Shown piece after piece: positions 5,801 through 6,879 of a stretch of DNA of 64,000 nt. Both the position numbers and the translations under genes were made by a program. This DNA is from Cyanidioschyzon merolae. Its lineage: Eukaryota. Below the pieces are notes generated by a model. That model made no database searches and was not told where the DNA came from. It saw only the letters and a list, made by a program, of their open reading frames with translations. The stretch lies in assembly GCA_000091205.1 (NCBI GenBank), contig AP006494.2; one strand, given 5' to 3'. Position 1 is the first letter of the stretch. Each line of letters begins with the position of its first letter.

Positions 5801-6044
5801 TTTGATGAGGATCCTCGTAGTCTTTCATGGATATATTACAGGACTTTACCCGCTTCCGCCGCGAATCCGCAGGTCTCTGACCTTCAGCTGACGGAAAAGC
5901 AGTGTCTTCCCGCGCATCCGCTGCAGCTCCTGTGCGCACTTCTTCAGACGGGGTAGACGTCGACTTGTTCCCGTCCGGGATGTGTGTTCCGTTGCCTTGC
6001 TGCTCTCGCGCGGTGCGGGAGCGTCTCTTCCGCGGGGGAACCAT
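2877..6044 (-). CDS. SWI/SNF complex subunit, SWI3/SMARCC family (SWIRM, ZZ zinc finger, SANT; SWI3D-like architecture)
   Basis: SWIRM: [83 protein letters not shown]. ZZ finger: [83 protein letters not shown]. C-terminal coiled coil. The track start at 6053 is a GTG; the first ATG in frame is at 6044 (MVPPRKRR). Confidence 0.85.
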   Translation of the reverse strand: [1055 protein letters not shown]

Positions 6045-6054
6045 GAAAAACACG

Positions 6055-6879
6055 TCACAGAGTTACTAGCTCCACCGAAAGACTTTCAATAGTCGATAGC
6101 TTGAATATCAGTATACAGTAGTGGCGAGCTGCGCGCCCTAGATCATACGTCTCCAACTGATGCGCAGATGCCTCCCTGTCTTTTTTGGACCGGCCATCTA
6201 CTACTGGTTTCAACTTGTTTCCGTAAAATTCCACCTGGAGAGGTTCCCCCACAAAGTTGGCTCTTGTCAACTCTGGAGGCCTTCTTTCCATCACCGCACA
6301 TCTCCTGATATTGATAGCGACATTAAAGTCTCGGTTCACAAACTCCATACGTTTCTTGCCATCATTGGTTGTACTATCCGATGTGATTAGTCCACGATCT
6401 TTCGCCATCCCTTCCGGTGACTGCTTCGTCAGCGCTCCGTACTTTGATATATCCACAGGGCTCCTCTGGCACTTTTCGATCTGCACGCTCTGGAGTGTGC
6501 AACCCAGCTCATGGTGTGTATACGATGTTCGGAACTCATCTACAGGTATCGTAACGAGACGCCTTGCGCACTCCTTGTACGCTCTTGTCGTCGGAGCTGG
6601 TGGACATCCTTTTTGGGTCATCCAGCGCCCTGTTCCGCACGCTACTACGAGCCTCTGACTTTCATCCTCTTTGAAGGCACTCAACTCATTGAAAAAATTC
6701 GCGAATGCACGCGGTTTCCCACAATACAAGTTCATACGCAAACGAGCCCACCGGGGCTTTGCATACTCATTCCACAGTGCATCCCAATGAGCAACGCGAA
6801 CTTCCATGAATTCCTGACAAGCTTGAAAGTCTGCTCCGCGGCTCGTCATCTGGTTCATAGCTTCAAGGTGCTCTTGCAT
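6055..6879 (-). CDS. TnpB/Fanzor-like protein, C-terminal region (RuvC-II/Zn-ribbon/RuvC-III)
   Basis: ...RRLVTIPVDEFRTSYTHHELGCTLQSVQIEKCQRS...GKKRMEFVNRDFNVAINIRRCAV. The '..yTS..C' block followed by 'NRDxNAAINI' is the hallmark C-terminus of TnpB/Cas12/Fanzor RuvC nucleases. The start is a genuine ATG at 6877-6879. Confidence 0.6.
   Translation of the reverse strand: MQEHLEAMNQMTSRGADFQACQEFMEVRVAHWDALWNEYAKPRWARLRMNLYCGKPRAFANFFNELSAFKEDESQRLVVACGTGRWMTQKGCPPAPTTRAYKECARRLVTIPVDEFRTSYTHHELGCTLQSVQIEKCQRSPVDISKYGALTKQSPEGMAKDRGLITSDSTTNDGKKRMEFVNRDFNVAINIRRCAVMERRPPELTRANFVGEPLQVEFYGNKLKPVVDGRSKKDREASAHQLETYDLGRAARHYCILIFKLSTIESLSVELVTL

Follow-up and report, generated by a model that had tools for sequence, protein, structure and literature searches.

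A decayed CMe-1A Fanzor1 copy beside the SWI3 start codon of Cyanidioschyzon merolae and its probable contribution to the SWI3 promoter and leader

The locus described here raises the question of where transcription of a conserved gene can begin when a second open reading frame (ORF) closes almost upon its start codon. The analyzed stretch of DNA, referred to below as the window, comprises 64,000 nucleotides of Cyanidioschyzon merolae 10D chromosome 12 (contig AP006494.2 of assembly GCA_000091205.1). On its minus strand a 274-aa ORF runs from 6879 to 6055 with a terminal TGA at 6057-6055, and the first ATG of a 1055-aa SWI3-type ORF follows at 6044-6042, on the same strand and in a different frame, with the 10 bases 6054-6045 between them. 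A first reading made from the sequence alone had placed both codons and their spacing correctly, had described the upstream ORF as Fanzor-like and had proposed that a transposon supplies the SWI3 promoter and 5' untranslated region (UTR). Alignment to the published family identifies the upstream ORF as part of a CMe-1A Fanzor1 transposon copy that is full-length and yet dead. The adjacency of TGA and ATG is real, yet it carries no significance as a stop-to-start distance; the 10-bp spacing is accidental because a frameshift lets the ORF read past its native stop into host DNA. The meaningful distance is the one from the element end to the SWI3 ATG, approximately 28 nt. The explanation that best accounts for the locus as a whole, and which we consider probable, is a decayed CMe-1A insertion approximately 28 nt from the genuine SWI3 ATG, with the right end of the element supplying promoter and leader.

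The transposon copy upstream of SWI3

CMe-1A was described as a Fanzor1 family of C. merolae with approximately 150 copies that each share approximately 80% identity with a consensus of 3169 bp (Bao & Jurka 2013, Mobile DNA 4:12; PMC3627910). The same report gives the family a single 734-aa Fanzor1 ORF, no terminal inverted repeats (TIRs) and undetermined target site duplications (TSDs), and reports no transposase (TnpA/HUH) with it. The consensus was taken from supplementary file 2 of that publication. A pairwise MAFFT alignment placed consensus base 1 at window position 9280 and the last consensus base at 6080, with 2599 of 3160 positions identical (82.2%). A blastn comparison matched consensus 84-3137 to window 9176-6111 at 82.6% identity, and a tblastn search with the 734-aa CMe-1 consensus protein covered residues 1-721 in four frame-shifted pieces. 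Metagenome contigs contained 408 stretches related to the element; 80 of these loci were retrieved, with 65-75% amino-acid identity, as befits a multicopy family. A repeat search with a minimum length of 30 nt, not aimed at short TIRs, found no inverted pair joining 6073-6200 with 9150-9280.

The Fanzor-like label given to the ORF in the sequence-only reading was borne out by profile comparisons. A family profile (A3) matched 1376 representative relatives, and a profile of 42 more distant A3 relatives of approximately 600-700 aa (A4) matched the solved Fanzor1 structures of Parasitella (PpFz1, 9cf0, E=1.3e-17), Spizellomyces (SpuFz1, 8gkh, E=2.5e-9) and Guillardia (GtFz1, 9cer, E=2e-4). At the level of sequence, descent from Fanzor1 is thereby established through a link that is transitive, passing by way of the profile of relatives. 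The split RuvC motifs I (D), II (E) and III (D) stand in the canonical order (GADPGNTNI, VDEFRTSY, NRDFNVAINI). Pfam and NCBIfam returned no match for the ORF pieces or for the long homologues, and family searches with ten distant relatives gave one sub-threshold PF07282 match only. A direct phmmer search of a near-full-length family protein against PDB sequences had a profilin match as its sole result, which was rejected as spurious. An AlphaFold2 model of the family protein P0023, calculated from a 31-sequence family alignment, was unusable (mean predicted local distance difference test score, pLDDT, 37.9; predicted template modelling score, pTM, 0.20). Several family proteins (P0002, P0007, P0015, P0033, P0086 and that of locus L044) carry tandem acidic repeats of approximately 18-20 aa (...KDEEKKEADPATQEVEDNDFVV...) directly before RuvC-I; the repeat number varies from 1 to approximately 5 among family proteins, and the window copy and the consensus have one.

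The position of the right end was established from the paralogous copies. A blastn comparison with 78 of them showed a sharp drop of homology at 6109-6116, and alignment and inspection of 46 de-duplicated 3' ends revealed that the family extends past this limit. Beyond the box ...CGCCACTACTGTACAC the copies share a terminal hairpin, which occurs in two sequence variants (cgtcgTTCGActtTCGAAcggcg and caacgTTTTTCttttGAAAggcgttg) with stems of approximately 10 bp (range 10-16 bp). The hairpin is followed by approximately 7 nt ending in (T)TCGGTG or TTGGTG, past which each copy is bordered by unrelated host DNA. The published consensus breaks off at window 6080, within the hairpin's 3' arm, and the family continues approximately 7 nt past it to ...GGTG, which corresponds to window 6073 +/- 3. 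A nested copy (L032/L040) pins the 3' terminus to within 2 nt. The junction in the window reads ...GACTATTGAAAGTCTTTCGGTG/GAGCTAG, the stroke marking the boundary, and the distance from the element end to the SWI3 ATG is approximately 28 nt, or 35 nt if measured from the published consensus end. No obvious TSD or target motif was found at either junction, in agreement with Bao and Jurka. The hairpins are more stable than shuffled sequence, their median z being -1.4 compared with 0.1 for host flanks taken as a control, and 15 of 45 copies fall below -2. The hairpin of the window copy is degenerate and folds weakly (z = -0.8).

Two further observations concern the ends of the family. In the nested arrangement L032/L040 one CMe-1A copy lies inside the 5' region of another, at approximately consensus position 20 and in the same orientation, showing that CMe-1A inserts into itself too. 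Most copies (L005, L017, L046, L066, L079, L080 and others) carry approximately 13 more conserved bases 5' of the published start (GATTCGTTTTTTT/CGATGACAAAACG), and with these extra bases the 5' end could form a terminal hairpin, CGTTTT...AAAACG. The segment is missing from the window copy (9281-9295), which is slightly 5'-truncated or diverged there.

The nuclease gene of the window copy is interrupted throughout. Relative to the consensus ORF it contains seven frameshifting indels, at approximately 8294, 8000, 7941, 7860, 7274, 6899 and 6186, as well as in-frame stops, and no intact nuclease ORF is present between 8343 and 6138. The last of these lesions explains the stop from which the 10-bp spacing had been measured. 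In an alignment of 42 copies the window reads CCAAAAAAG where most copies read CCAAAAAG, and because of this extra A in the run 6186-6181 the native TAG of the family is out of frame. The mechanical ORF therefore crosses the approximately 65-nt tail and 15 nt of host DNA until it meets a chance TGA. Homologues match only approximately the first 233 of its 274 residues, the rest being a frameshifted C-terminus, element tail and those 15 nt of host sequence, and the exact 274-aa product is not among the 10D entries of the protein collection. The TGA at 6057-6055, taken in the sequence-only reading for the real end of a Fanzor ORF, is thus a read-through artefact and not the native stop of the family, and the nuclease gene is dead. 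An environmental strain (L001-L003, 98-99% identical) has the same arrangement and the same lesions. The coordinates of the features are collected in Table 1.

Table 1 Features of the SWI3 locus and the upstream CMe-1A copy (window coordinates)
Feature	Position	Strand	Basis or remark
SWI3/SMARCC-type gene, 1055 aa	2877..6044	-	exact match to BAM80683.1 / XP_005536719.1 (SWI/SNF subunit C)
Host spacer, 28 nt	6045..6072	-	no homology to any other family copy; 0/28 mismatches with the environmental strain
Mechanical 274-aa ORF	6055..6879	-	RuvC-II/III part of the pseudogene plus read-through sequence
Degenerate full-length CMe-1A copy	6073..9280	-	colinear with the 3169-bp consensus; 5' end 9280, 3' end ~6073-6080
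Non-coding 3' tail, ~65 nt	6073..6137	-	conserved box GGGCG...CGCCACTACTGTAyAC plus degenerate terminal hairpin
Native family stop TAG (within GTCTAGGGCG)	6138..6140	-	consensus ORF ends ...HVSWRRFV*; conserved in most copies
Fanzor1 pseudogene	6138..8343	-	consensus-aligned ATG 8343-8341 to native TAG 6140-6138; tblastn, alignment
A-run, last frameshift	6181..6186	-	six A versus five in the family; 1-nt insertion at 6186
RuvC-III Asp codon	6328..6330	-	motif NRDFNVAINIRRC; aligns to NRDQAAVLN of 9cf0
RuvC-II Glu codon	6535..6537	-	motif VDEFRTSY; aligns to IDEFRTSS of Parasitella Fanzor1 9cf0
RuvC-I Asp codon	7049..7051	-	motif GADPGNTNI; three-frame translation; matches GxDPGRxNI of the A4 consensus
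Host intergenic remainder	9281..9710	.	element 5' end to divergent neighbour gene (ATG 9711, +)

The SWI3 start and its host flanks

The protein encoded downstream of the element contains the Pfam domains SWIRM-assoc_2, SWIRM, ZZ, Myb and SWIRM-assoc_1. A homology search with its first 280 residues found nothing, not even the protein itself, whereas the full-length query succeeded, yielding full-length orthologues with 75% identity from Cyanidiococcus yangmingshanensis, 74% from a related lineage and 56% from Cyanidium caldarium. The sequence-only reading had left open that SWI3 might start at a downstream Met near 5825, that of SMKDYEDP, whose codon is 5828-5826. Approximately 220 nt of the N-terminal extension would then be 5' UTR or promoter, which would agree with the start of the first Pfam domain (SWIRM-assoc_2) only at approximately residue 70 and with the low-complexity, basic character of the first 70 residues. 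Against this, the three orthologue N-termini align with the SWI3 of the window from residue 1 (MAPSRKRRSR / MSPPRKRRSG / MPAASRRTRS). They share the pattern M-x-P-x-(x)-R-K/R-R-R-S/T and then a second basic box, RPKRVK, and the extension has approximately 70 residues throughout. Its length and its sequence are both kept in Cyanidiococcus, the related lineage and Cyanidium; the candidate Met is Leu in all three, and all 12 proteins retrieved from the 29-member SWI3 cluster of C. merolae are 1055 aa long with the same N-terminus. Because the N-terminus is conserved and the downstream Met is Leu in three other lineages, the comparison indicates that the ATG at 6044 is the genuine SWI3 start. Initiation at the downstream Met is refuted by the same alignment, and we give it hardly any credence.

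Comparison with the orthologous SWI3 loci, which the sequence-only reading had suggested as a means of defining the element end, upheld the view that the element is an insertion. The syntenic order is PhoH-like, ATE, an approximately 300-aa gene, an approximately 252-aa gene and SWI3. Within 3 kb upstream of SWI3 neither Cyanidiococcus yangmingshanensis nor Cyanidium caldarium resembled CMe-1A at the nucleotide or the protein level. SWI3 and its divergent neighbour are 3666 nt apart in C. merolae, of which 3.2 kb is the element, against 1533 nt in Cyanidiococcus and 732 nt in Cyanidium. Because the orthologous loci are empty and the synteny is conserved, the element is a lineage-specific insertion, situated in the divergent promoter region that separates SWI3 from its 258-aa neighbour. 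An old CMe-1A copy would accordingly have inserted after the C. merolae lineage split from Cyanidiococcus, and the upstream regulatory DNA would have been displaced by 3.2 kb. The insertion left 28 nt of host DNA beside SWI3 and 430 nt beside the neighbour.

Divergence between 10D and the environmental strain was 1.2% in the element, 0.47% in the left flank and 0.41% in the SWI3 coding sequence (CDS), so that the element diverges approximately three times faster than the host flanks. Mismatches numbered 3 of 68 positions in the tail, 37 of 3139 in the remaining element and none of 28 in the spacer. The 28-nt spacer showed no similarity to the orthologous upstream regions, in which only a 70-nt block of the left flank and the start of the CDS align. 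This block (9392-9461) is approximately 80% identical in Cyanidiococcus and the related lineage (L082, L083), the other intergenic DNA being unalignable. It had no Rfam or tRNA match, and its interpretation as a small conserved ORF was rejected, since the matches fall in several frames with stops and there is no protein-level conservation. It is possibly a shared regulatory element of the divergent gene pair.

Elsewhere around the locus, a 5S rRNA gene lies at 2044-2164 on the plus strand, approximately 700 nt past the SWI3 3' end, and matches Rfam RF00001 over its full length with 94 bits. A search of the whole window gave no tRNA genes. Positions 1-2000 are GC-rich, 66.8% versus approximately 55% elsewhere, and contain many overlapping spurious ORFs.

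Positions of CMe-1A copies relative to host genes

The placement of the element before SWI3 was compared with that of other family members. For 44 de-duplicated copies, each with at least 600 nt of downstream sequence, the distance was recorded from the 3' end to the first ATG of a same-strand ORF of at least 150 aa. Such an ATG lies within 60 nt in 12 of 44 copies, within 100 nt in 16 (36%) and within 300 nt in 25. Random intergenic positions in random orientation on the same contigs gave approximately 2.9%, 4.4% and 10.2% at these distances (binomial p = 3e-9, 3e-11 and 3e-14), and a cruder control over all positions gave 9%, 12% and 26%. As an internal control, ends of convergent genes within 100 nt of the 3' end were counted and occur at just 2 of the 44 copies. 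At the element 5' end, too, there is a tendency to face gene starts, though from farther off (7 of 16 within 300 nt). The ORFs downstream of the 3' ends are unrelated host genes, among them a triose-phosphate-transporter family member, an APE-type nuclease, cytochrome b5, a Macro domain protein, a PHD protein, a methyltransferase, a hydrolase and an SMC gene. The SMC gene has a canonical N-terminus (SMC_N from residue 4) that begins 48 nt past the element. The spacers between element and ATG contain 2 ATGs in 968 nt versus approximately 10-15 expected, as in 5' leaders. The last 150 nt of the element are likewise poor in ATG (0.8 versus approximately 2.5 expected per copy); as evidence of a leader this was discounted, since the copies share ancestry. 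Each of the five Fanzor-like remnants in the window has an ORF on its own strand 30-470 nt downstream.

The CMe-1A family is thus biased to the immediate upstream side of host starts in sense orientation. No description of such a bias was found in the searchable literature, and Bao and Jurka do not report copy positions relative to starts. The bias suggests either promoter-proximal, strand-specific targeting or promoter activity of the Fanzor right end, neither of which was encountered in the searchable literature. A more far-reaching version, in which CMe-1A right ends are placed by targeting or retention 10-100 nt upstream of sense starts and serve approximately one third of the adjacent genes, SWI3 included, as a portable promoter and leader, is put forward tentatively, and we incline to doubt it.

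The window also contains degenerate CMe-1A/Fanzor1-like fragments at 12942-13884 (+), 23516-23719 (+), 35852-36595 (-), 48967-49614 (+), 53609-53831 (-) and 63692-63822 (-), with 24-50% amino-acid or approximately 70% nucleotide identity to the CMe-1A consensus. In the four fragments with protein similarity a same-strand ORF begins 134-470 nt past the predicted element end, an example being the ATE gene at 14554. The gene pair 10732-11664 / 14554 is 2.9 kb apart here versus 323 nt in Cyanidiococcus. At 61084-61313 (+) a 72-nt unit is repeated three times in tandem at 95-99% identity, and every repeat contains a match to consensus 2-50 on the opposite strand at approximately 80% identity. A 300-nt direct repeat (13194-13493 / 23029-23328) is 99% identical, its copies lying 9.8 kb apart and both beside Fanzor-like fragments. 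Three colinear inverted-repeat segments of 41-86 nt, 79-85% complementary, join 11936-12449 to 36733-37229 over approximately 24-25 kb and probably represent another dispersed repeat family flanking Fanzor-like remnants.

Guide RNA, promoter and related systems

In the omega RNA of SpuFz1 a 75-nt scaffold precedes a guide of 14-15 nt that comes from the flank, with a guide range of 14-20 nt (PMC10432273). The CMe-1A tail, from TAG to terminus, is approximately 65 nt and comparable in length, and by this analogy 6073-6137 is a candidate omega-RNA scaffold region. A guide of 14-20 nt would span approximately 6072-6053, inside the 28-nt spacer, and would end 8-13 nt before the ATG. It would then overlap the presumptive SWI3 5' leader and not coding sequence. 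The overlap of a guide RNA with the SWI3 5' coding end, as proposed in the sequence-only reading, does not agree with this geometry, the element ending approximately 28 nt before the ATG. RNAalifold applied to 42 copies gave only a 3-bp stem without covariation, two hand-drawn candidate helices showed covariation no greater than shuffled controls, and Rfam (E <= 1) had no match for the element tail. No conserved guide-RNA fold is therefore demonstrated in the tail by these sequence comparisons. Were the locus an active OMEGA/Fanzor system nonetheless, with an intact ORF and an omega RNA reaching into and guided by the SWI3 5' CDS, the still recognizable catalytic D/E/D motifs in the translation and the likeness of the tail to the SpuFz1 scaffold in length would be accounted for. 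Some copies have long open frames (778 codons in L044), and a trans-acting protein could exist in the population. Set against these are the seven frameshifts and several stops shared with the second strain, the artefactual nature of the stop, the shortfall of a 14-20-nt guide from the CDS and the missing structural signal, and we judge such a system very improbable. This copy is no functional RNA-guided nuclease locus; should its right end still give rise to an RNA, the guide would match the 28-nt SWI3 leader and not the CDS.

The origin of the SWI3 promoter has to be considered against a background in which, as of 2025, endogenous C. merolae promoters and transcription start sites are uncharacterised (PMC12770821). 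The element stands between the ancestral upstream region and an intact host CDS, the arrangement of a transposon-derived promoter. Since only approximately 28 nt of host DNA precede an intact conserved gene, SWI3 transcription most likely starts in or at the element tail, and we infer that tail plus spacer most likely supply the core promoter and part of the 5' UTR. With a dead CMe-1A copy next to the SWI3 start, transcription would begin in or at the 3' tail of that copy. The right end of the family would be compatible with, or contribute to, expression of a downstream gene, and the outward transcription required by an omega-RNA-type right end is a possible source of such activity. The earlier proposal of a transposon-supplied promoter and 5' UTR is consequently a reasonable one as regards the host DNA, of which too little remains for a normal promoter, and fails in its description of the flank, which is non-coding spacer. 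A sigma-70 promoter and terminator scan was disregarded because the organism is eukaryotic.

Several observations weigh against a promoter in the tail. The tail shows no sign of purifying selection (3/68 versus 1.2% in the element body, the numbers being small), and its TATA-like TGTATAC is not conserved even in the close environmental strain. The last 200 nt of the window copy contain two ATGs, which would open upstream ORFs if transcription began far inside the element. The bias of the family could reflect an insertion preference for promoters or open chromatin in place of promoter activity, and its percentages are approximate, the null having been drawn from the same metagenome contigs with ORF-based gene calls. 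Part of this evidence would suit a gene that merely tolerates an irrelevant element and is driven by an initiator in the spacer together with left-flank elements (9281-9710) acting across 3.2 kb. Between the strains the spacer does not vary (0/28), the left flank, which includes the 70-nt block conserved in Cyanidiococcus, is under constraint (0.47%), and the tail is not conserved. We nevertheless consider this unlikely: 28 nt is very short for a core promoter plus leader, several other copies have a spacer of only 7-14 nt and part of the initiation region must there be element-derived, and with counts this small the tail could still be under constraint. Transcription could also enter SWI3 from farther away, as a chimeric read-through RNA of approximately 6 kb that joins element and SWI3 and starts from the transposon's own promoter, or from an omega-RNA promoter deep inside the ORF. 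In TnpB and Fanzor elements transcription runs outward from the right end into the flank (PMC10432273), pseudogene and SWI3 have no evident terminator between them, and the same-strand orientation bias of the family fits outward transcription. A long leader of this kind would, however, hold many upstream ATGs and ORF fragments (ATGs at approximately 6197 and 6147; the 274-aa ORF), cap-dependent scanning would rarely reach the SWI3 ATG, and C. merolae transposable elements are largely marked by trimethylation of histone H3 lysine 27 (H3K27me3) and repressed (bioRxiv 10.1101/2022.10.24.513474). Read-through transcription accordingly appears to us distinctly unlikely, and initiation in or near the element tail is retained as the preferred explanation.

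Comparison with known systems places the copy within an already described group. It belongs to the same family and genome as published CMe-1A (PMC3627910) and its 82% identity fits the published value of approximately 80%; it differs in being a pseudogene, and the family is extended here by approximately 7 nt at the 3' side and approximately 13 nt at the 5' side (GATTCGTTTTTTT). SpuFz1 of Spizellomyces punctatus (Saito et al. 2023, PMC10432273; PDB 8gkh) is of the same protein family as CMe-1. SpuFz1 elements have inverted repeats, which CMe-1A is reported to lack; the SpuFz1 omega RNA was shown by small-RNA sequencing in S. punctatus, whereas the CMe-1A counterpart is a candidate from sequence alone; and the SpuFz1 nuclease is intact and active, in contrast to that of the window copy, which is dead. 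With IS200/IS605 elements (ISDra2, IS608; PMC10690162, PMC10432273) CMe-1A shares a RuvC nuclease gene toward the right side, a reported absence of TIRs (with TSDs that could not be determined either; PMC3627910), a hairpin-forming right end with few nucleotides to the terminus, and the expectation of a guide from the right flank. It is unlike them in its eukaryotic host and in having no associated TnpA/HUH transposase (PMC3627910). CMe-1A is not classed as IS200/IS605-like or Helitron-like, nor as HUH-mobilised, because Bao and Jurka reported no transposase, the genome not having been searched for one. The hairpin-capable left terminus of the family, CGTTTT...AAAACG, is likened to IS200/IS605, and the subterminal 3' hairpin with its approximately 7-nt tail (GGTG), IS200/IS605- or Helitron-like, is present in the family and degenerate in the window copy.

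Promoters that derive from transposons, and transposons that target promoters, are familiar from Tf1 in Schizosaccharomyces pombe, from P elements and from MITEs (miniature transposable elements with inverted repeats) near 5' ends. As in those cases, CMe-1A insertions cluster just upstream of genes, where they may replace or add to the promoter or 5' UTR. The CMe-1A bias differs in being strand-specific and very close to the start (median tens of nt), and in involving a Fanzor (OMEGA-type) element.

The SWI3 locus is in itself ordinary, a dead copy of a transposon family published in 2013. As an essential-looking chromatin-remodeller gene with approximately 28 nt of its own DNA before a conserved start, SWI3/SMARCC nevertheless offers a natural test case for a minimal C. 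merolae promoter. The recurrent placement of Fanzor right ends before host starts is a modestly interesting and testable by-product of the analysis. If true, a portable right-end promoter would tie the outward guide transcription of OMEGA systems to host gene expression in an extremely compact eukaryote genome.

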